DNA of 64,000 nucleotides from assembly GCF_047632995.1 (NCBI RefSeq), contig NZ_JBLIEK010000002.1, positions 6,285 to 70,284 of the forward strand, read 5' to 3'. Origin of the DNA: Psychromonas sp. GTDB taxonomy: Bacteria; Pseudomonadota; Gammaproteobacteria; Enterobacterales; Psychromonadaceae. Below, piece by piece: positions 4,263 to 16,196 of this stretch (position 1 is the stretch's first letter; each line of letters begins with the position of its first letter). Under the pieces are notes generated by a model that had not been told where the DNA came from, made no database searches, and worked only from the letters and a program-made list of their open reading frames with translations. Made by a program: the position numbers and the translations under genes.

Positions 4263-6368
4263 TTAATCTAAGTAAATAATTTTACAATCGTCGACATCTG
4301 ATTTAAATATAAGTTGATTACCTTCGATCATAGATTCAATTTTTTCTGCTGAAACAGGTTCAGAATAGTAATACCCTTGTATCAAATCACAACCATAACT
4401 ACGGATACAGGCAAGCTGTTCAAACGTTTCAACGCCTTCGGCCACAACTTCTAATCCAAGATTTTTAGCTAGGCAGATAATAGATTTAATAATGGCAACA
4501 TCTGGTTTGTTTTCAGGAATATGTTCGATAAATGATTTGTCAATTTTTAACGTAGAGAGCGGCAGGTTTCTGAGTTGTGAAAAAGAAGAATAGCCCGTAC
4601 CAAAATCATCAATGGACATTTTGATACCCAGCTCACTCAATCTTCTCAATGTTTCTTGAGCGTTTCCGTCCTGATAACTTGGCACTAAATGATCTTCAGT
4701 GATCTCAATTTCAAATAGAGTCGCGCTAACACCTTCTTGCGCTAATACAGTTTCAACGTAATCCGTAAAATCTTCACTGTAGAGCTGTTTTCCCGATACA
4801 TTAACGGCAATAGTCAAATCTTCACAAGCTGTATTTTGCCATTTGCGTAACTGACGGACCGCTTCGTAAATCACCCATCGACCTAATGGAATAATCAATC
4901 CCGTTTCTTCCGCCACGGGAATAAACTCGCTTGGAGATACAGACGGCTTATTGCCCCTATTCCAGCGGATTAAAGCCTCAACTCCAGAGACCTGTTCACT
5001 ATTAGCGCGCACCTTAGGCTGATATACAAGGGTAAAGTTGTTATTTTCCAGCGCATCATGCAACTCGTTTTCCAACGACCAACGCCTGATACTACTTTCT
5101 GTTAACTCTTTGCAGTAAAAAGCAAACTGATCTTGGTCAGAACGCTTTGCCTGATACATTGCGGTATCTGCATTGCGTAATAGCTCTTCCGTATTTTTGC
5201 CATTATCAGGATAAATACTAATGCCAATACTGGCCTCTATATAAATCATTTTATTGGCTAAATAAAATGGCTTTTCAAAAAGCATCTGCAATCGACGAAT
5301 AAAAGAAAGCACCTGTTTCACATGTTCAACAGAGTCAATAATAATAGCAAATTCATCACCGCCAAATCTCGCCACCAGATCATAATTACGAACCTCCGTA
5401 CTGAAGCGATCGGCCACTTCACACAACAAAACATCCCCAACATCATGTCCTAATGAATCATTAATATTCTTAAAGCGATCCAGATCAATAAACAACAGCC
5501 CCACCTTAAGTCCACGACGATCAGCTCGCTGTATTGCACGCTCTAGTTGTTGCTGGAATAAGGTGCGATTGGGTAGATTGGTAAGTGCATCATGATGAGC
5601 AATATGAACAAGTTGTTTCTGTGATTTTTTAAGCTCAGAGATATCCTGCATGATGCCTGACAGTATGCCCCCCTCCAATAACTTTCCTTGCAGATGCACA
5701 TATAACATAGTTTTATTAGCTAATCGGATACTTACATCAAGGCTAAATGCTTCTTTGTTGATAAATGCCTGTAGCATTACATACTTTACATATGAGCGTT
5801 CCGCGGGATGAACAAGTGCCAGCAAATGCTCAAGACCATGCTCAAATTGTATTGCAGATAAATAGAGCATTTTTGATAACTGTCGAGACAGCAACAAACG
5901 CCCTTCGGCACCATCTAACTCCCAGTGCCCTAATTTAGCGATCTGCTGAGCATGCTCCAGCCGAGATTCACTTTTTTTTAAGGATTCAAGATAACTGCTA
6001 CTGCGTAAGACATAGCGTAAGTGATGCACTATCAAAGACCAGTTAATCGGTTTTGCTATAAAATCAGTTGCCCCAAGACGATAAGCCTTATCAATTGATA
6101 AAGTATCATCCATACCAGTGATCATGACTACCGGAACATTATTCCCCGGCCCAGATTCACGTATCAGCTTACAGACTTCAAAGCCGTTTAATTTCGGTAA
6201 TTCAACATCTAATAAGACTAAATCAGGCAACTGCTCATTAAACAAAGCAAATCCTTGTGCGCCATCTTTCGCCTCGATGATATCGAACATCTCAGATGAT
6301 AGCACTTGGCAAATTAATAACCGGGTCATCTCATCATCATCTACTACCAATATCGTTTTTCTGTTCAT
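4263..6368 (-). CDS. Response regulator with REC, PAS-like, GGDEF and EAL domains (c-di-GMP enzyme)
   Basis: REC (ILVVDDD, VLLDVELP), HDALTNLPNR, RNYD I-site, GGDEF, VEALIRW, IDDFGTGYSS. Confidence 0.93.
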   Translation of the reverse strand: MNRKTILVVDDDEMTRLLICQVLSSEMFDIIEAKDGAQGFALFNEQLPDLVLLDVELPKLNGFEVCKLIRESGPGNNVPVVMITGMDDTLSIDKAYRLGATDFIAKPINWSLIVHHLRYVLRSSSYLESLKKSESRLEHAQQIAKLGHWELDGAEGRLLLSRQLSKMLYLSAIQFEHGLEHLLALVHPAERSYVKYVMLQAFINKEAFSLDVSIRLANKTMLYVHLQGKLLEGGILSGIMQDISELKKSQKQLVHIAHHDALTNLPNRTLFQQQLERAIQRADRRGLKVGLLFIDLDRFKNINDSLGHDVGDVLLCEVADRFSTEVRNYDLVARFGGDEFAIIIDSVEHVKQVLSFIRRLQMLFEKPFYLANKMIYIEASIGISIYPDNGKNTEELLRNADTAMYQAKRSDQDQFAFYCKELTESSIRRWSLENELHDALENNNFTLVYQPKVRANSEQVSGVEALIRWNRGNKPSVSPSEFIPVAEETGLIIPLGRWVIYEAVRQLRKWQNTACEDLTIAVNVSGKQLYSEDFTDYVETVLAQEGVSATLFEIEITEDHLVPSYQDGNAQETLRRLSELGIKMSIDDFGTGYSSFSQLRNLPLSTLKIDKSFIEHIPENKPDVAIIKSIICLAKNLGLEVVAEGVETFEQLACIRSYGCDLIQGYYYSEPVSAEKIESMIEGNQLIFKSDVDDCKIIYLD

Positions 6369-6379
6369 AAAACCTCAAA

Positions 6380-9175
6380 TTAGACGCTACGCCTAAACTC
6401 TGTTTCTGCATAAAAATAACGTTTCACCAAGCAAGACTCCTGCTTAATATTAGTAATAAGATCTGGTATTAAAGATAACATTTCTGCAATAACGGCCTGC
6501 TCTAACTGTTTGCATAGATCCGCTAACTGATAGGCGCCTACATTTGCGCTGCTTGATTTTAATGTGTGAGCCAGTTTCCGTATGCTGTCAAATTGTTGAG
6601 ATGGATTAGCTAACTGCACTAAACTCTCTTCTAACGTATCTAAAAACAGATGAATAACCTTATTAACCAAATAGGTTGACTGTTCAGGACTAAGTGCGGC
6701 AATTTTTTCCAGCGCACTAGGATCTACAGATGCGGCAGTTTCATCTTTTATGATTTCTAAATCATCATCATCATAATCATAATCCTGATCATCTTTTATA
6801 AAATCAGTCAACGCGCTCTGCCGTGGCACATTCAGCCACGGAGTTAATGACTCATAAAGATCAACGGCTGAAAAAGGTTTACTCAAATAACCGTTCATAC
6901 CCGTTTTCAAGCACAGCTCCATATCTCCATCCATGGCATTTGCAGTTAACGCAACAATAGTTATACCTGCAGCAAGTTTGCCTGTTAATTCCATTTTCCG
7001 GATCCGGCGAGTTGCCTCTAATCCATCCATCTCAGGCATCTGCATATCCATTAGGATAAGATCATAGGTCTGCTGTTGAACAGCAGCAACCGCTGCTAAA
7101 CCATGTTCGGCTATATCAACTTGCAGACCAAACGATTCCAACATGATTAGAGCGACTTCCTGATTAACTTTGTTATCTTCGGCAAGCAAAATTCGGTATG
7201 GATAGTCGAAATGAAGATCTGGATACTCAGAATAAACCTCTTTTTCATCTCCTTTAATTTCTACTTGAAAGGCTTGCATTAAGCAGCGGTAAAGATTTTT
7301 TTGTAAAACAGGTTTATTAAGAAAACAGCTAATACGGTTATCCTTTAATGATCTCGGATCTGCATCAACAGAGCTCAGCATGATTATTTCAGGCTGCCGC
7401 CAAGATAAATTTTGACGAATTTTATGAGCTAATTCTAAGCCATCCATATCCGGCATATCCATATCTAATATAAGCAGATCATAAGACCGTTTCTCAATAT
7501 CAGCAGCTTGCATCATCTGCAACGCTTGCTGACCACTATCAGCTAAATCACAACTGATATCGATCGCCACCAGCTGATCCTTAAAAAGCAATCGATTAGT
7601 CTGGTTATCATCAACAACAAGCAAGCGTTTATCCTGCACAACAGATAAATCAAACGGCATTATCGAATCAACAGATTGCAGTGGTATTAACGCAAGCGTA
7701 AACGTAAAGCAACTTCCTCGTGCAATTTCTGATTTTACGCTAAGCTCTCCGCCCATCATCTCAACGAGTTGCCGTGCAATCGGCAGACCTAATCCTGTTC
7801 CACCATATTTTCGCGTAGTTGAACTATCAGCCTGGGAAAACGAGGTGAAAATATGCTCAATTTTATCTTCTTTAATACCTATACCTGTATCTTCAATTGC
7901 AAACGTCAACCGCCCTTGTGACTCAGTAACTTGCAATAATACCTGTCCCTGATCTGTAAATTTAAGCGCATTACTCAGCAAGTTACTCAGTACCTGTCTG
8001 AGTCTTACCGGATCACCTTGATAATTGTTTGAGAAACGCGGCGGAATTGCAAGTACAAGCTCCATGTTTTTACTGTATGAAGACTCCGCATACAAAACAG
8101 CAAGCTCTTCAATCAACTCTCGCAAATTAAATTCAATGGATTCGAGCTCCATTTTTCCCGCTTCAATTTTGGAAAAATCTAAAATATCATTGATGATATG
8201 GAGCAGACTTTTACCCGATTGATAAACCGTTTCAGTAAAGCGTTTCTGTCGATCATTGAGCTTGGTCTGAAGTAACAGTTCCGTCATGCCCAGAACGCCA
8301 TTCATCGGCGTGCGGATCTCATGGCTCATAGTAGCTAAAAATTCACTCTTAGCTTTGCTCGCCGCTTCGGCATTCTCTTTCGCTAAGATTAACTCCTGAG
8401 TTCGTAGGGTGATTTTTTCCTCTAAGCTATTTTGATAATTTTCCAGCTCCTTATCTCGCGCTTCAACCTGCTCTAACATCATATTAAATCCCAGGATCAG
8501 CGAACCGATTTCATCATAACGCTCACCGGGAATACGGATATGGTAGTTTTTCTCCTCTGAAACCTGCTCCATCACTTGTCTCATATCCAACAAAGGCTGC
8601 GAAATAAGGCGCTGCATGCGCGCAGAGAGCAAAAAAGCCAGTAAAGTGCCAAGCATCAAAATAAAAGGAGCAAATATAGCCTGTCGCCATAAACGCTCAC
8701 GCAGCAGGCTAAGATCATCCATCAGCAGCACATTACCCAACGCTTTACCCTCGAAGCTAATCGGCTCAATATGGTAAAGAATATTATCAAATCCACTTTG
8801 TTGTAATTCTTGCAAATTCATTTGCAAGAATCTGTTATCCGCATGTTTAGCAAAAAAGGGGTGAATATATTCAGCCAGTAACAGATTATCGTTATCGTAA
8901 ATCCTAGCAAGCACAATTTCCGGCTTGGCCTGCAGACTATCCAAGCTTTCTTTGGCCGCCTCTTGATCACGAAAAGCCAATGTAGCGGTGTTCTGTGAAG
9001 CCATTAATCTGGCCAATGTCTGCAACTGATTTCGTGCATCAAGATGGCTGTAATGGTATTGCATAACGCCAATTAAGATCACTATTGTCAAGGCTACCAA
9101 AGCGCCGGACATCAAACCGATCGAGGTTAACTGACTACGTAATGAAAGATGCTTAAGTTGTATCATTAAAATCAC
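6380..9175 (-). CDS. Hybrid sensor histidine kinase (CHASE8-like/HAMP-HisKA-HATPase-REC-REC-HPt)
   Basis: Two TM helices around a [17 protein letters not shown] sensor, [16 protein letters not shown]-box, GGTGLGL, two REC domains, [13 protein letters not shown] HPt. Confidence 0.93.
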
Positions 9176-9726
9176 CTCGGATTATCAACTAGGATCGCCA
9201 GCTTAAGCAGCTTAGAGCTAAATTGCAGTTCAGAGCGGACGAGTTGCAGCCTATTCACTTGAAAACGCAGGCGCTGATCGATTTCAACCAGATTAATAAG
9301 TCCGCCAGAATCAAAAAAAGGACTGTCATCACTGATAATTAGCACTGTTTTCTGATTTATTAATGACAGAATATAACGGTAACGATTGCGTTCACTGGTA
9401 TTAATATAAAAAACATTGCACTGCTGAAAATCAAGCTTACTTTCTGGTTGCAGCAGTACAATCGGATGACCGCTAATCTCTTTTTGTTGTAACGTCTGCA
9501 ACTCCTCATCCATGCGGTCCTTACTATAGAAGCAAAGCTGAAATGGCGCGGTAGGGCTGTTCCAGGTTGCATCCGGCCAACGGGTAAACTTGGCAATATT
9601 ATATATATAGGCCACTTTTAAAGAATTTATAGCGCGCGGCGTAGCTGATGCGAAGCACTCTTCATATGCCATCACTAGCGGGAAAAACAGCAGTAAGCAA
9701 TAACGTAACCTAAAAGTTGTCACCAT
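9172..9726 (-). CDS. yfiR: YfiR/HmsC family (DUF4154) periplasmic protein
   Basis: [16 protein letters not shown] and RLRFQVN...SSKLLKLA motifs, two Cys, signal-like N-terminus; GGAG before ATG 9726. Confidence 0.85.
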
Positions 9727-9744
9727 TACACTCTCCAATAGCAA

Positions 9745-11775
9745 TCACCAGCTCAAGATAGCTTTGATAAAGACGCTGCGTTCAATGCGTGAGGGGGATG
9801 ACCAGGATTCAGTTTGAAACTGTTGTTTGTCTGAATTTAGCAGATGACGTCCCACTAGGGATAACGCCAATGACGGCATCGGCTGCCAAGCAAGGCGCAG
9901 ATCACCATCAATATTGTTCTTAATTACTTCCGGAACCGCGTTAGACCAAGAGCGCTGACCTGTGTAATAAAGGCGTAAATCTAATTCCACTGTTTCGCTT
10001 AAATTAAAACTGCCCCACAAGGAAGCCTGATGCGTAGATGAGCGGTCTGCCATCAAGGAGAGCAGATTTTCACTGTACATATTAGGCTGAGTATCCTCTA
10101 GCTGTATATCGAGCAGGCTATAAGAGAGACGCAAACGGCTGTGGGGAGTGGCTTGCCAAGTTGTTAACAGTTCCAAACCGCTACTGTGTCCCTGAATATT
10201 ATTGTCAAGGTTAAGCGGCACCACGGCAAACATATCGCCATTGACAAACTGCATATTCGCATTGCCTAAATTATAACTACGCAGATTTTTATAATCATTA
10301 TAAAAAGTAGCGATATCCAGCGCTAGTTCAGGGTGAGGCATCCAGCGAACACCTAACTCATAGGCGTCTAATTGTTCAGATTCAAAGCCTTCATTCCCTG
10401 TAATCTGCAGCATAGTGGGTAGCGGATTATTCGGATCCTCCGCAAATGGCGGTACAACGTAAATATTAAGCACGCCTTCGTTTTCCACGCGCGAAGGCGT
10501 ACGCATCGCACGCGATACAGCCCCCCACCAAGTCACCTGCTCACTAGGCACCCAGCTCATGCGTAAGTTAGGTTGCACTTCGGTACCCGTATAACTGTTA
10601 CCTTCAAACTTAGTGCCTAAGGTCAGAGATATATTTTGCTCAGGAAAACGTAACGTATCCTGAATAAACAGATTCCAGATTCCACTGTATTCCACAGCTT
10701 CAGAAACAGAAACAAGCGATGAGGAAGTGAAATCATTTTTACTCCAGCGGTAACCGCCCCCCCAAACTAACTCATGATCTGCAAATGGCGCAAACTGATG
10801 CTGCAGCTCAAAATCCAAGGTATCACGATGTTCACTATATTTAAGTTCCTGGTGATCATAAAAATCATAGTTAAAACTAGCACTTAATTCTGAATCAAGG
10901 CTCCTGATCTGGCTCCAGCGAATCCCTAAGTTCCCCCCTTTAGCTTCGACATCGCCATTCACAACTTGATCCATATACGGTGCCTCAAAGCTAGGAACTT
11001 TATGCTGCTGCTGTAGAGAGTCACGATACAGATCTCCTTGAAAGGTCAGTGATTGATCTTCACTTGGTTGCAGATCCAAACGTAAACCCGTCTGCAGATA
11101 ATCTCCGCCGTTATCCTGCCCCGTAGCAAACAGATCGTCAGATTCATCCAAACGTCGTCCTTTGGCATAAACACGTAGCTGTGCATTTTCAGAAGGCGCA
11201 AAGCCCTGACGTCCCTCAACCAGCTTTAATTCATTACCCGCAGCCAGGGCAAGCTGCCCACCTTGGGTGTCAGCGGCTTCCCGCGTAATAATATTGATAA
11301 TACCATTCACCGCATTGGCCCCCCACAGAGTGGCACCGGGACCTCGGATCACCTCTATACGCTCAATATCCGGCAACAGATAATCAAGATATTCCCAGTA
11401 AACGCCAGAATGTGTTGGCGTATAAACACTGCGACCATCAATTAACACTAATAATTTATTAGCAAAACGGCCATTAAAACCGCGTATACTCACAGCCCAT
11501 TTATTGGGATCAATCTCCGCGACATCAACACCTGGAACCAAGCGTAACGCCTCAGGAATAGATGTCGCACCGGAGCGGCGGATCTCATCCTGAGTCACCA
11601 CATAAACTGCAGCGGCAGCTTGCGAAAGTTTTTCACTTTTTTTACTTACCGAGGTAACCTCCATCTGCATTAGTTCATCAAAACCGAGTTCAGACAGATC
11701 TTGTGATGGACTGTCAGCCAGTATCAGGCTAGGAAACAAAGTAAAGATCCCGGCTAAATAGATTAATTTTCCCAT
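9745..11775 (-). CDS. TonB-dependent outer-membrane receptor (plug + barrel)
   Basis: VTSVSKKSE...EIRRSGATSIPEALRLVPG plug, IERIEVIRGPGATLWGANAVNGIINIIT, C-terminal aromatic W; AAGGA before ATG 11775. Confidence 0.92.
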   Translation of the reverse strand: MGKLIYLAGIFTLFPSLILADSPSQDLSELGFDELMQMEVTSVSKKSEKLSQAAAAVYVVTQDEIRRSGATSIPEALRLVPGVDVAEIDPNKWAVSIRGFNGRFANKLLVLIDGRSVYTPTHSGVYWEYLDYLLPDIERIEVIRGPGATLWGANAVNGIINIITREAADTQGGQLALAAGNELKLVEGRQGFAPSENAQLRVYAKGRRLDESDDLFATGQDNGGDYLQTGLRLDLQPSEDQSLTFQGDLYRDSLQQQHKVPSFEAPYMDQVVNGDVEAKGGNLGIRWSQIRSLDSELSASFNYDFYDHQELKYSEHRDTLDFELQHQFAPFADHELVWGGGYRWSKNDFTSSSLVSVSEAVEYSGIWNLFIQDTLRFPEQNISLTLGTKFEGNSYTGTEVQPNLRMSWVPSEQVTWWGAVSRAMRTPSRVENEGVLNIYVVPPFAEDPNNPLPTMLQITGNEGFESEQLDAYELGVRWMPHPELALDIATFYNDYKNLRSYNLGNANMQFVNGDMFAVVPLNLDNNIQGHSSGLELLTTWQATPHSRLRLSYSLLDIQLEDTQPNMYSENLLSLMADRSSTHQASLWGSFNLSETVELDLRLYYTGQRSWSNAVPEVIKNNIDGDLRLAWQPMPSLALSLVGRHLLNSDKQQFQTESWSSPSRIERSVFIKAILSW

Positions 11776-12228
11776 CTCTATTAATCCTTTATGTGAGGTT
11801 TTAAGTAAAAAAGTCAAAACAACCCGCCGATAGCCACTTCGGATAGATCCGTCAGTATTTATTAGCCATCACTAAAGTGGCAAAAATAAACAACACGGCA
11901 AGAGTCACAAAAAAATCAACGGTCATGAGGTTATCAATAAAAAATAGCACAACAACACAAATCAGCCAGAACAAAGTTCACAAAAACAAAGGGGAATATT
12001 TCCTGTTCATCACATAACAGAGGCCGACTGATCTTTTATATTTATAATTTGAGCGATAAAATCACCTTTATTAAAAGAATGATTTCTACAATCGCTAACC
12101 AAGGGAGTTTTAATCTTGAAGTGGTTTTGCTACATAAGAGAGTTATCACTCTCTGTTCACTTATTTTTGTGACTCTTTAAATTGCTGTTATGATTAATTA
12201 ATCATTTTGGTTAACTTCAGGCAAGTCA

Positions 12229-12822
12229 ATGGATAAGCAAGTTTTTTTAAATCGCTTTTTTTTTCATAATCAGCCTATAAGCACCGATTTACGCGCAGCT
12301 GAAAAGTCACTGCTTATAAATAATCACAGCTTAAAAAAAGCAGCGGTGTTAATCCCTTTCGTAAAACGTGCTAATGGATTAAATATAATCTTCACCGAGC
12401 GCGCTTTACATCTGCGCCATCATCCGGGGCAAATCAGCTTTCCCGGCGGGAAGCAGGAACAAGGCGACAGCAGTCTGAAACAGACGGCTCTGCGTGAGAC
12501 AGAAGAAGAGATTGGCATTTTGCAAGATCAGATAGCTATTTTTGGCACATTGCCTAAACTGCCGACAGTAAGCGGCTTTGTGGTCTATCCCTATCTGGGA
12601 TTTGTGCAAAGTAATCACACCCTGCAAATAGATGAGCAGGAAGTTAAAAGCATATTTGAAGTACCGCTTACGTTTGTTCTTAATAAAAAAAACTATTATC
12701 TACAGCATTTAACCGCCAATAAAAAACGCCATTTCACCTACTGCATCCCCTACCAGAATAGGATGATATGGGGCGCAACCGCGCAAATGCTTTATAATTT
12801 ACAGCGTCACTTAAATGATTAA
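12229..12822 (+). CDS. nudL: Nudix CoA pyrophosphatase
   Basis: LRHHPGQISFPGG plus Nudix box ALRETEEEIG, IWGATA. Confidence 0.88.
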   Translation: MDKQVFLNRFFFHNQPISTDLRAAEKSLLINNHSLKKAAVLIPFVKRANGLNIIFTERALHLRHHPGQISFPGGKQEQGDSSLKQTALRETEEEIGILQDQIAIFGTLPKLPTVSGFVVYPYLGFVQSNHTLQIDEQEVKSIFEVPLTFVLNKKNYYLQHLTANKKRHFTYCIPYQNRMIWGATAQMLYNLQRHLND

Positions 12823-13474
12823 GCACCTTTGATTCTTAATAATCTACAAATGCATTTAGTATAGGGCCGTTGCAAGTTAGCTTCCTAAGTTAGAAAGGGA
12901 CATATAGCGACTTAGAGATTTTGCACTATTTATCTGTTGTGAGTCCCTCATTTACGCTCGCTTTCGCCCCCCATGGCGAACGAATGTGCCTAGAAAGATC
13001 AGATGCAAGAATGCTGATCACTTGATCATTAACAACATATTTCTATTTGAGATTTATTTCGGAAGCCCTTTTAGATTTAGAACCTAGCCCAAACTTTATG
13101 TGGGTACTTCAATGCCGAACTTTTAATGATATTTAAAAAAACTTGCTCGAACTGAAAAATAGATCATAATCCTCGACCTTATCTAGAGTTAAGAATTAAT
13201 TACAAAGTTGCAAACTTCCCTAGTTTTGATAGTAATATCCATTCAAATAAGAGAGGTATTACAAGTGTATTGATTACACATTAATGTCAACTACATTACT
13301 GAAAATATTGGTTTTTTGGCCTATAGATAAACGTACAACAAAGTTGAAGATCTATTTCTTGTGGTAAATTTCTGGCTGAGTTTGTTAACCTTAGTTGGTA
13401 TTTAATTTTTTTAGTCTGGTTAAGTAAATTTATTAGTCTGCTGACTGGACGATGATAAATATTGGATGTATTAA

Positions 13475-14050
13475 ATGTTAGAAGTCATCGCATATTTTGT
13501 AATACCCTTTTTAGTTATACTTGTCATTGCCTATTTTTATGTAGAAGCGCAGAGAAGAAAGGTCGAAGAGGAAAAGAAGAGAGCCATTTTTTTACGTATC
13601 GCTACAATGAAAGCTAATTTCAAGGCTGAGTTGAAACGACTAGTTGAACAAGAAAGATTAACGATAAGAGAACAGGAATCGATCTATCGCATTGCTAATA
13701 ACTTTTTCGTTTTTCAACCAGTTACAATTAAAAGTATAAGTTATTGTGAACAATTGCTTAATAACGTTATCAGCGCAATGCCAACTGGTGGTCCCGATAG
13801 TATTAACTTCGATCTTATACAAGAACAAGTTAGCTCATTTGTACATTCATTACCTGCCGCCGCGCGTGACCATAACCCCGCCTTTTACCGCAATAAACTT
13901 CCAGAGTTAATTAAGCAGCTAATTGATTCTCAAGAATATATATACGAAACTGAGAACGAAAATAGCAACGAAGAATCACTGGCCCCGGTGTCTGCGGCAA
14001 TAACTACTTACTTGCCAACTCCCCCTACCGTGACTGTACCACTCATGTGA
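13475..14050 (+). CDS. Membrane-anchored hypothetical protein
   Basis: 191 aa ORF, N-terminal TM helix then helical charged region; 3' tail overlaps an IS remnant. Confidence 0.7.
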   Translation: MLEVIAYFVIPFLVILVIAYFYVEAQRRKVEEEKKRAIFLRIATMKANFKAELKRLVEQERLTIREQESIYRIANNFFVFQPVTIKSISYCEQLLNNVISAMPTGGPDSINFDLIQEQVSSFVHSLPAAARDHNPAFYRNKLPELIKQLIDSQEYIYETENENSNEESLAPVSAAITTYLPTPPTVTVPLM

Positions 14051-14097
14051 TCTTTGAGCCGCTGGCTTTTATCGCCCGTTTAGCGGCCTTGGCACCT
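14023..14097 (+). mobile_element. IS91/ISCR-family (Y2) transposase remnant
   Basis: Reads PYRDCTTHVIFEPLAFIARLAALAP, matching the family motif PYRDGTTHVIFEPLDFIARLAALVP as recalled. Confidence 0.75.
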
Positions 14098-14103
14098 ATG
14101 AGT

Positions 14104-14131
14104 AAAAGGCGGGACACGAAAAGGCGGGACA
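14104..14131 (+). repeat. Short direct repeat AAAAGGCGGGACA x2
   Basis: Identical 13-mers at 14104 and 14119, directly after the IS remnant. Confidence 0.7.
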
Positions 14132-14467
14132 TCCAAACCTTTTATTCTTTTAAAACATTGGATGAAAAAACACACCAGACTCGACTAAACTCTAAAAATA
14201 TTACACTGCTCAAAAGGCGAGTAATACAAGTCGGTATTGGCTGATAAAATTGATATTAGAGAATAAAAAGCTGCGGCTATATGCCTCCAATCACCTAAAA
14301 TAGTGGAAATGTAAGCTATGACACGCTCGCTTTTCCCCGAGCGCGAGCAAAGTAGTGACCAAGTAAATTTGGCTTTTTTTTAGTTTTGTAAGTCGCTATG
14401 GGCGTTTGCGACTTAGCTTTATTTGCTGATTCTTCATTATGTTCAGCATTATTGAAAATTCAGAGAC

Positions 14468-14665: not shown

Positions 14666-14855
14666 AATCCAACTCCTCTGACTTGCTTAAAATCAAACCA
14701 TAGACCAATATTCTTCTTTAATACAGGACGTTGTAGCTCTCACGTTTAAATGCGCAATTAAACATCGCCTTCGAAATAATGTGCAGATGAAAGTCAATGA
14801 CAAAAGCGTAGGATTCAAACCAGTAAACACCATCACCCTAACCTTGAGCGTTATT

Positions 14856-16196
14856 ATGCCGACTACTATTGAACAGCCGATCACCCGTGCTTTATTAATT
14901 TCCATTCGCACTCCGCATGTCACAACCGAGGAAATTAATGAGTCGTTAGCCGAATTAGAGCGTTTAGTCAGCACCTTGGGGTTTACTGTTTTTGCGACGC
15001 AAACCCAGAGGCAAAACTCGACTAAACGTTTGTCTGTATTGGGATCGGGTAAACTCGAAGAGCTAGCTCGTATGACAGGAGAGATAAATAGTCTCGATTC
15101 GGAAGATGCTCTCGCTAATATTGATGAACACGCATTGAACGACTTTTTAAGCAGCTCGAAGGCTAAATCACATGCCAATGTAGTGGTTTTTGATTGTGAA
15201 CTCAGTCCAATGCAATTACGTAACGTTGAGGATATATTAGGCGTTAAGGTATTTGATCGCACGGGCATTATTATTGAAATTTTTAGCCGTCATGCGCATA
15301 CACGCAGCGCTCGGTTACAGATTGAGCTGGCACGGTTAAATTATTTAACCCCAAGATTACGCAGTGACCATAGCGGCAATAGTGAACGTCATAGCGGGCG
15401 TGGCAAGGGTGAAACGATATTTGCCATTGAGCGCCGTAAAATTCGCGACAAACAAGCAGAGCTCAGACGTGAACTAAAAAATGTACAAAATGAGATGCAA
15501 GAACAACGTAGCAGTCGCGCGCAAGAGCTGTGTGTAGCATTAGTGGGATATACCAATGCGGGTAAATCCTCCTTGATGCGCGCCTTAACTGGGGCCGAAG
15601 TATTAATTGAAGACAAACTATTTGCGACTCTAGATACGACCGTGCGGGCCTTATCACCCGCAACGCAACCCAAAATTTTAATTTCCGATACGGTCGGATT
15701 TATTAAAAAATTGCCCCACGATTTAGTCCCTTCATTTCATTCCACATTAGAAGAAGCAAAAGATGCAACGCTCCTCTTATATGTAGTTGATGCTGCAGAT
15801 CAAAACTTCCGCGCTCAACTCGCAGTCGTTGAGGATGTTTTACAACAATTAAAGCTTGCTAGCACTAACCGTTTATTACTGCTGAACAAGGTTGATTGCT
15901 TAACACCCGCTGAGAAACAAGCATTAACCCTTGAGTATCCTAACGCATTACAAATCTGCACGCGTAATGCGCATGACATTGCAGTTGTACATCAAGTGAT
16001 TCAAGACGTTTTAGCAGAGCAGATGTGCACTGCTTGTTTTAATATCCCTTACACCGCCAACGGTATTATGGGGGAGATCCACAGTAAGATGCAGGTGCTA
16101 GAAGAGCAGTATCATGAAGGTGGAATAAGAGTAACGGTTAAGGCAAGCAATGTCGCACTGGAACGATTATATAAAATGTTACAACAATCATTTTAA
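14856..16196 (+). CDS. hflX: GTPase HflX (stand-alone paralog)
   Basis: FDCELSPMQLRNVE, IIEIFSRHA, GYTNAGKSS, DKLFATLDTT, DTVGF, NKVD; probable start ATG 14856. Confidence 0.9.
   Translation: MPTTIEQPITRALLISIRTPHVTTEEINESLAELERLVSTLGFTVFATQTQRQNSTKRLSVLGSGKLEELARMTGEINSLDSEDALANIDEHALNDFLSSSKAKSHANVVVFDCELSPMQLRNVEDILGVKVFDRTGIIIEIFSRHAHTRSARLQIELARLNYLTPRLRSDHSGNSERHSGRGKGETIFAIERRKIRDKQAELRRELKNVQNEMQEQRSSRAQELCVALVGYTNAGKSSLMRALTGAEVLIEDKLFATLDTTVRALSPATQPKILISDTVGFIKKLPHDLVPSFHSTLEEAKDATLLLYVVDAADQNFRAQLAVVEDVLQQLKLASTNRLLLLNKVDCLTPAEKQALTLEYPNALQICTRNAHDIAVVHQVIQDVLAEQMCTACFNIPYTANGIMGEIHSKMQVLEEQYHEGGIRVTVKASNVALERLYKMLQQSF

Follow-up and report, generated by a model that had tools for sequence, protein, structure and literature searches.

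How an outer-membrane protein can control cyclic di-guanosine monophosphate (c-di-GMP) is best modelled by the YfiBNR system (TpbB/DgcN) of Pseudomonas aeruginosa and Escherichia coli, to which the paralogous systems AwsXRO and HmsCDE belong. Here we describe a predicted operon from Psychromonas sp. (assembly GCF_047632995.1, contig NZ_JBLIEK010000002.1) that resembles this system. It lies on the minus strand at positions 4263-11817 of a stretch of 64,000 nucleotides (contig positions 6,285 to 70,284), which was analysed as a whole and is called the window below. From 5' to 3', and as assigned by Pfam, the operon encodes a TonB-dependent receptor, a YfiR-like DUF4154 protein, a CHASE8-HAMP hybrid kinase and a REC-PAS-GGDEF-EAL regulator. 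We found it to be a real, divergent member of a widespread and already catalogued YfiBNR-type signalling variant.

As in YfiBNR, a DUF4154 gene stands beside the gene of an inner-membrane CHASE8-HAMP protein, an outer-membrane partner is encoded in the same operon, and the predicted output is c-di-GMP. The outer-membrane partner is however a TonB-dependent receptor and not an OmpA-like lipoprotein such as YfiB. Furthermore, YfiN has the architecture CHASE8-HAMP-GGDEF, whereas here CHASE8-HAMP is fused to HisKA-HATPase-REC-REC-HPt and the GGDEF domain is found on a separate regulator.

To our knowledge, TonB-dependent receptors signal in two ways only, either through an N-terminal domain to an anti-sigma factor or indirectly, when a ligand has been imported and a sensor in the periplasm detects it. 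The operon shares with FecA-FecR-FecI that a TonB-dependent receptor is encoded together with signalling genes, and that a conserved element is found N-terminal to the TonB box, at the position of the FecA signalling domain. Unlike in that system, there is no STN domain and no nearby gene for an anti-sigma factor or an extracytoplasmic function (ECF) sigma factor, and the receptor is followed by partners of another kind, a soluble protein of the periplasm and a histidine kinase. A TonB-dependent receptor also works with a two-component sensor in PfeA-PfeS/PfeR and PirA-PirS/PirR of P. aeruginosa, where periplasmic sensing of ferric enterobactin by the kinase PfeS requires its prior import through PfeA or PirA (PMC8001512). 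The PfeA-PfeS/PfeR system differs in that it has no DUF4154 adaptor and no CHASE8 domain, and that its output is transcription of the receptor gene and not c-di-GMP. On the output side, PdeK/PdeR of Xanthomonas oryzae (and RavS/RavR) resemble the operon in that a histidine kinase governs a REC-GGDEF-EAL regulator; the phosphodiesterase activity of PdeR, itself a REC/GGDEF/EAL regulator, is switched on by PdeK (PMC6637768). PdeK has however no link to a receptor or to a YfiR-like protein, and the kinase described here is an unorthodox REC-REC-HPt hybrid.

The closest match was found in NCBIfam. Release 20 contains the models NF053590 (TOL_0244 family TonB-dependent receptor), NF053591 (TOL_0243 family YfiR-like periplasmic protein) and NF053592 (sensor histidine kinase, YfiR-like protein-associated), and the receptor, the YfiR-like protein and the kinase each had the corresponding model as best specific match, in the same gene order. 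The receptor scored 587 bits against NF053590 (cut-off 645; model positions 1-602 of 604), and its next-best NCBIfam family reached 108 bits. The YfiR-like protein scored 102.9 bits against NF053591 over the full model length (cut-off 125), and the kinase 149.8 bits against NF053592 (cut-off 194), with residues 11-238 covering model positions 1-222 of 223. Since all three scores lie below the curated cut-offs, we regard the operon as a divergent branch. The three genes, hereafter the trio, are adjacent and co-conserved as in the catalogued families (gaps of 18 and 5 nt here); the attached REC-PAS-GGDEF-EAL regulator sets this operon apart from them. A literature search returned no experimental study of the receptor, YfiR-like and kinase trio. 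The preliminary description of this DNA had proposed a route distinct from the known systems. This was borne out in so far as the receptor has no STN domain and no gene for FecR, an ECF sigma factor or YfiB is present in or beside the operon, but the novelty was overstated, as three NCBIfam models already exist.

The four genes and their products

The preliminary description had also reported four tightly packed genes on one strand with gaps of about 0-20 nt. The list of open reading frames (ORFs) contained four co-directional ORFs on the minus strand (11817..9745, 9744..9172, 9175..6380 and 6368..4263). Reading of the junctions gave ATG codons at 11775, 9726, 9166 and 6368 as likely starts, all four preceded by a GGAG/GAGG ribosome-binding site, and the gaps measured in this way were 18, 5 and 11 nt, in agreement with the earlier account. 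The TGA stop codon of the receptor gene is contiguous with the YfiR-like reading frame, and the ribosome-binding site of the kinase gene overlaps the stop codon of the YfiR-like gene. The domain calls and all motif claims made earlier agreed with Pfam and with our own motif reading. The features are as follows.

9745..11775, minus strand: TonB-dependent receptor, 676 residues; start ATG at 11775, ORF open back to a TTG at 11817
11641..11700, minus strand: conserved N-terminal element of the receptor, DLSELGFDELMQMEVTSVSK, recognised when 61 trio receptors of many phyla were aligned
9172..9726, minus strand: YfiR-like periplasmic protein (DUF4154, PF13689), 184 residues with signal peptide
6380..9166, minus strand: unorthodox hybrid sensor kinase, 928 residues, from Pfam and motif reading
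4263..6368, minus strand: response regulator with c-di-GMP enzyme domains, 701 residues, from Pfam and motif reading

The YfiR-like protein matched PF13689 with 136.7 bits. Against NF053586, the model for true YfiR equivalogs, it scored 51.5 bits, below the cut-off of 85, and we therefore regard it as a homologue and not an orthologue of YfiR. Pairwise similarity to P. aeruginosa YfiR was weak (E = 0.17); a profile of 81 family members matched YfiR in the PDB with E = 2.8e-13. The AlphaFold2 model of the protein had a predicted local distance difference test score (pLDDT) of 89.9, and its 15 best PDB matches were all YfiR, with template modelling scores (TM-scores) of 0.73-0.78. The nearest folds after YfiR were small periplasmic substrate-binding proteins, including a complex with L-Trp. 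Family and pairwise alignments placed Cys65 and Cys103 at the positions of Cys71 and Cys110, the redox-responsive pair of YfiR (PMC4655355), and in the cysteine alignment the Cys145-Cys152 pair was absent. The most conserved family positions are located in helix alpha1, the alpha1-beta1 loop and the C-terminal helix, with K43, Y46, Y48, N49, W56, P57, S176, L179 and L180 among them; the same regions of YfiR have been described as a conserved partner-binding surface (PMC4655355). In comparison with YfiR, the fold, the conserved partner surface and a cysteine pair of the Cys71/Cys110 type are thus retained, whereas the Cys145-Cys152 disulfide is missing.

DUF4154 was also seen fused in cis to histidine kinases at two loci (L085:3042-5636, minus strand, and L086:4282-6192, plus strand), in the order signal/transmembrane segment, DUF4154, long coiled coil, transmembrane segment and kinase. 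These fusions had no CHASE8 domain and no receptor nearby. Fusions of DUF4154 to a receptor were considered as well, and the long open frames turned out to be high-GC artefacts or DUF4154-kinase fusions.

In the kinase, a first transmembrane segment is followed by the periplasmic CHASE8 domain (60.2 bits in Pfam), a second transmembrane segment, HAMP, HisKA with H282, HATPase, two REC domains with D568 and D707, and HPt with H867. The N, G1 and G2 boxes are present as NALKFT, DTGIG and GGTGLG, and partial matches to the NCBIfam models of BarA and TorS were obtained. By its motifs the protein classes as a predicted unorthodox hybrid phosphorelay kinase of the BarA/TorS/ArcB type. The regulator gave Pfam matches to EAL (253 bits), GGDEF (179 bits) and REC (88 bits), and a weak match to PAS_3 (E = 4.7e-4). 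It contains D54, the I-site R327NYD330 five residues before G336GDEF340, and the EAL set E464AL, DDFGTG587-592, EGVE644-647 and the K of KID. With its catalytic motifs intact it is a predicted REC-GGDEF-EAL regulator of the PdeR type.

The receptor starts with the signal peptide MGKLIYLAGIFTLFPSLILA, ends in SW and is built as a plug with a 22-strand barrel. Pfam found the Plug domain (82.8 bits) and the TonB-dependent barrel (86.5 bits) and nothing else; no STN or FecA-type domain was matched at E <= 0.01. The TonB-box-like MEVTSVS begins about 18 residues into the mature protein and leaves no room for an STN domain. With only about 17-18 mature residues ahead of the TonB box, the earlier view of a receptor without a signalling extension was confirmed.

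The short stretch around the TonB box is nevertheless strongly conserved. The N-terminal element combines the strand MEVTSVS with a conserved segment of about 12 residues preceding it, and among the 61 trio receptors the 20-residue consensus is DLxxLSLEELMNIEVTSVSK. The Leu of EEL is conserved in 98% of them and has the highest information content in the N-terminal third of the receptor, and the element is as conserved as the core plug motifs. The segment before the TonB box stands where FecA-type transducers have their signalling domain. The three other TonB-dependent receptors of the genome do not contain the element.

A read-through fusion of the receptor and the YfiR-like protein was folded with AlphaFold2 from a partly paired alignment, which combined 16 in-frame fusions from other loci with unpaired rows. 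The model had a pLDDT of 89.8 and a predicted template modelling score (pTM) of 0.81, values that report on fold confidence and from which the interface cannot be read. Its TonB-box region formed a short strand with a pLDDT of 67-77, and its receptor part matched Cir, BtuB and ChuA with TM-scores of 0.80-0.88. A ligand was sought through sequence and fold matches in the PDB, which reached only generic receptors (PfeA, Cir, BtuB and ChuA).

Copper was considered as a ligand because one orphan receptor of the same family is encoded beside an outer-membrane efflux protein and a multicopper oxidase, but this basis was too thin to name it. The gene of that receptor (L083:2767-7911, minus strand), whose 755 bits exceed the cut-off, lacks a YfiR-like neighbour and precedes the efflux and oxidase genes. 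A large copper-resistance cluster is found in the present window from about 24 kb onwards, and the link to the orphan receptor may be coincidence.

Co-conservation and co-evolution of the trio

In a forward survey the alignment of YfiR-like proteins was searched against species-representative genomes. This gave 188 confirmed loci, of which the best 80 were kept; 73 of these had enough upstream and 76 enough downstream sequence. The loci belonged to Psychromonas, Vibrio, Colwellia, Aeromonadaceae, Betaproteobacteria and relatives of Geobacter and Desulfobulbus, and further to Acidobacteriota, Planctomycetota, Armatimonadota, Elusimicrobia, Ignavibacteria and others. A receptor gene was found directly upstream on the same strand in 64 of the 73 loci (55 recognised by phmmer and 9 by Pfam), and within about 6 kb in 6 more. 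Directly downstream of the YfiR-like gene, 71 of the 76 loci encoded a CHASE8-HAMP protein, with a histidine kinase as output in 57 cases, GGDEF-EAL in 10 and another output in 4. The kinase gene was followed by a REC-GGDEF(-EAL) gene in 16 of the 76 loci, among them all complete Psychromonas loci and loci from a Vibrio, from Aeromonadaceae, from one member each of Zoogloeaceae, Geobacteraceae and Armatimonadota, and from a betaproteobacterial metagenome-assembled genome. The same four genes are present in the cultured relatives Psychromonas ossibalaenae ATCC BAA-1528, P. arctica and Psychromonas sp. PT13.

For the reverse survey, 401 evenly drawn Pseudomonadota genomes were searched with NF053590 at E <= 1e-60 and with PF13689. 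NF053590 matched 84 genes in 71 genomes (about 18%) and PF13689 matched 132 genes in 99 genomes. A DUF4154 gene directly adjoined the receptor gene on the same strand in 44 of the 84 cases and lay within 6 kb in 20 more, mostly in the permuted order YfiR-kinase-receptor, giving 64 in total. Four receptor genes were far from a DUF4154 gene, and 16 had none on their contigs, which were often short. When only matches over the curated cut-off were counted, 21 of 25 adjoined a DUF4154 gene. From the other side, about half of the DUF4154 genes (63 of 132) were near such a receptor. From the adjacency in the reverse survey we concluded that the receptor family is largely dedicated to its DUF4154 partnership. 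The preliminary description had made its reading depend on co-conservation of the receptor; the receptor is clearly co-conserved with the YfiR-like and CHASE8 genes, since the association spans phyla, shows up from whichever side the search starts and occurs with two gene orders.

The surveyed loci also showed some unusual arrangements. In four lineages the receptor was independently duplicated in tandem beside a single YfiR-like gene (L013, L019, L047 and L054); the duplicates were 80-98% identical in N-terminus and plug and 45-80% in the barrel. In three Aeromonadaceae loci (L035, L042 and L043) the receptor gene was divergently transcribed, and an ORF of about 282 residues without Pfam match was found directly upstream of the YfiR-like gene. 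Another locus (L051:8257-8982, plus strand) had a plug-only ORF of 241 residues upstream of the YfiR-like gene and no CHASE8 downstream, and is probably decayed. In Psychromonas sp. KJ10-2 (L009) the receptor and REC-GGDEF-EAL genes were each split into two ORFs (6888-8914 and 12325-14408), with the YfiR-like and kinase genes intact; the splits are due to joint decay or to assembly errors.

Co-evolution of the parts was assessed with Mantel tests on FastTree patristic distances from 61 complete trios. The YfiR-like protein and the sensor domain correlated with rho 0.79, as strongly as the two halves of one receptor (plug vs barrel, rho 0.78). The correlations of the receptor were loose, with rho 0.22-0.32 to the YfiR-like protein and 0.16-0.27 to the sensor. 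All correlations were significant, and the three parts still sorted together by major clade. These values suggest that the YfiR-like/CHASE8 pair is a tightly co-evolving core and the receptor a looser partner.

Possible routes from the receptor to the kinase

In the mechanism that we propose, the YfiR-like protein, once exported, would bind to CHASE8 on the periplasmic side of the kinase, in the manner of YfiR on YfiN, and would thereby set the kinase/phosphatase state. That the protein is predicted to act on CHASE8 in this way is well supported, because of the adjacency in 71 of 76 loci, the rho of 0.79 and the fusions of DUF4154 in cis to kinases. A ligand at the cell surface would then free the N-terminal element of the receptor (DLxxLxF/L-D/E-E-L-M and the TonB box) into the periplasm. 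The freed element would capture the YfiR-like protein as YfiB sequesters YfiR, whereby CHASE8 would be released and the kinase switched. Ligand-induced release of the TonB box is known from other TonB-dependent receptors. Phosphate would pass from H282 to D568 or D707, on to H867 of the HPt domain and finally to D54 of the regulator. Phosphorylation would shift the GGDEF-EAL balance, probably to hydrolysis as in PdeK/PdeR, and would change c-di-GMP and surface behaviour. For the phosphorelay and the phosphorylation-dependent shift we rely on the intact motifs and on the PdeK/PdeR precedent.

It is the co-conservation that supports a role of the receptor as the putative dedicated outer-membrane input; the mode of its coupling to the YfiR-like protein we infer. 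Our tentative preference, held at rather less than even confidence, is for a YfiB-type logic, in which the N-terminal element, once exposed by the ligand, would capture the YfiR-like protein. This reading is favoured by the lack of inner-membrane uptake genes in the operon, by the position of the element at that of the FecA signalling domain, and by the fact that in all characterised DUF4154 systems the DUF4154 protein is sequestered by an outer-membrane protein (YfiB; PMC4655355).

Several observations weigh against capture by the receptor. Three of the 73 loci had YfiR-like and kinase genes with no receptor nearby; a fragmented receptor was looked for in these three and none was found. The co-evolution of the receptor with both of its partners is loose, and the three family scores are below their cut-offs. 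The N-terminal element was also found in two orphan family members without an adjoining YfiR-like gene, and we therefore take it as a trait of the family that gives no proof of YfiR docking. An extended TonB box that serves one particular TonB would explain it equally well. Finally, we know of no precedent for direct signalling by a TonB-dependent receptor that lacks an STN domain.

The earlier interpretation is partly supported. Protein contact may link the receptor to the YfiR-like protein, and import of the ligand followed by sensing accounts for the data about as well. In that case the receptor would transport the ligand into the periplasm, where either the YfiR-like protein would bind it as a small co-sensor resembling a substrate-binding protein and would change its grip on CHASE8, or CHASE8 would sense it with the YfiR-like protein as modulator; the phosphorelay and its c-di-GMP output would be unchanged. 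TorT for TorS and LuxP for LuxQ are precedents for such periplasmic co-sensors. The canonical plug, barrel and TonB box of the receptor and the three TonB genes of the genome are consistent with import, and so are the substrate-binding proteins, including the L-Trp complex, that come closest in fold after YfiR. The weak co-evolution of receptor and YfiR-like protein beside the tight pairing of the latter with the sensor points in the same direction, as does the use of DUF4154 as periplasmic sensor domain of kinases without a nearby receptor. One locus (L050) lacks a receptor gene but has those for the YfiR-like protein, the kinase and the regulator, and import by PfeA/PirA before periplasmic sensing by PfeS provides a described example (PMC8001512). 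However, across the range from Acidobacteriota to Psychromonas the receptors beside YfiR-like genes are of one dedicated family and share the N-terminal element. On the import reading, either one class of ligand has been conserved although the habitats differ greatly, or the constraint lies elsewhere than in the ligand. Moreover, the DUF4154 proteins characterised so far are all controlled by protein sequestration (PMC4655355) and are not known to depend mainly on ligand import for their control. We consider import a serious possibility, if a somewhat doubtful one.

The receptor could also take up a nutrient and carry no signal, its gene being no more than co-expressed with a sensor of the YfiR/YfiN type for envelope or redox stress. 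The YfiR-like protein would then respond through its cysteine pair to the redox state or to folding in the periplasm, as has been proposed for YfiR. The kept Cys65/Cys103, matching the redox-sensitive Cys71-Cys110 of YfiR, would agree with this, as would the loose co-evolution of the receptor and the few loci without one. However, a functionally untied transporter would not remain linked so consistently, in both search directions, across phyla and in two gene orders (64/73 and 64/84). The 2:2:2 stoichiometry in the genome described below and the lack of partner uptake genes also speak against it, and we regard co-expression without signalling as improbable.

We likewise hardly expect control in the reverse direction, in which the YfiR-like protein would attach to the receptor from the periplasmic side and regulate transport, for example by blocking TonB, with the kinase reporting the occupancy of the YfiR-like protein. 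Information would then run from the cell to the receptor no less than in the opposite sense. The same co-conservation data would fit, and the element overlaps the TonB box, so that a bound protein would compete with TonB, but such control has no precedent and leaves the phosphorelay to a c-di-GMP enzyme unexplained.

Genomic setting and wider meaning

Downstream of the operon lie a convergent cmoB gene, then cmoA and aspS, and upstream a divergent NUDIX gene and an hflX-like gene. No gene for FecR, an ECF sigma factor or a YfiB-type OmpA-like lipoprotein was found in the operon or its immediate flanks; the operon had no inner-membrane uptake genes and the flanks no transport genes. Since the flanks hold no transport, sigma/anti-sigma or YfiB-type genes, the four genes appear as a self-contained unit. 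That they would act as one functional unit is well supported. The chromosomal context is common to two close relatives (L002 and L005). One further feature belongs to the operon.

11776..12228, minus strand: upstream intergenic region of 453 bp between the receptor gene and the divergent NUDIX hydrolase gene

The operon promoter presumably lies within this region. The sole match there was a weak sigma-70-like one at 11883..11854 (9/12), and promoter and terminator scans gave no signal above the background of shuffled sequence. Since sigma-70-like matches were no commoner than in shuffled sequence, the promoter was not located. Between the NUDIX and HflX-like GTPase genes, in a stretch of low GC content (0.34 at 13-14 kb), we observed two ORFs of 191 residues without Pfam match (window positions 13475-14050, plus strand, and 14693-15268, minus strand).

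In the genome of this Psychromonas sp. (4.13 Mb, 233 contigs), DUF4154 and CHASE8 proteins are encoded by exactly two genes each and TonB-dependent receptors by five; of these receptors, two belong to the NF053590-type family. All receptors of this family and all DUF4154 and CHASE8 genes fall in two trios (2:2:2). The second trio is located on contig C77 (L001:6157-10806, minus strand), directly upstream of phoB/phoR, and consists of a receptor of 664 residues, a DUF4154 protein of 180 residues and a CHASE8-HAMP-GGDEF-EAL protein of 701 residues. The corresponding parts of the two trios are 28%, 21% and 28% identical, which shows that the trios diverged long ago and rules out a recent duplicate. 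Judged from their domains, both trios would end in c-di-GMP, the one on C77 directly and the one described here through the phosphorelay. The three TonB genes (C67:14379-14615, C29:29029-29256 and C10:44470-44703) are each within a few kb of one conventional receptor, and none is near the trio receptors.

A broader reading is that receptors of the NF053590 family are dedicated transducers, which would constitute a third general route of TonB-dependent signalling. The exposed DLxxLSLEELM segment and TonB box would capture the adaptor and release CHASE8, and the CHASE8 sensor may be wired to kinases, c-di-GMP enzymes or chemoreceptors. This generalisation is conceivable, though we would not yet lean towards it. 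The module joins TonB-dependent signalling with c-di-GMP control of the YfiBNR type and is widespread. The c-di-GMP output of the Psychromonas version offers easy biofilm and reporter read-outs, with the second trio as internal comparison. Identification of the ligand and of the coupling step would show to what the orphan receptors and CHASE8 kinases of this large class respond.

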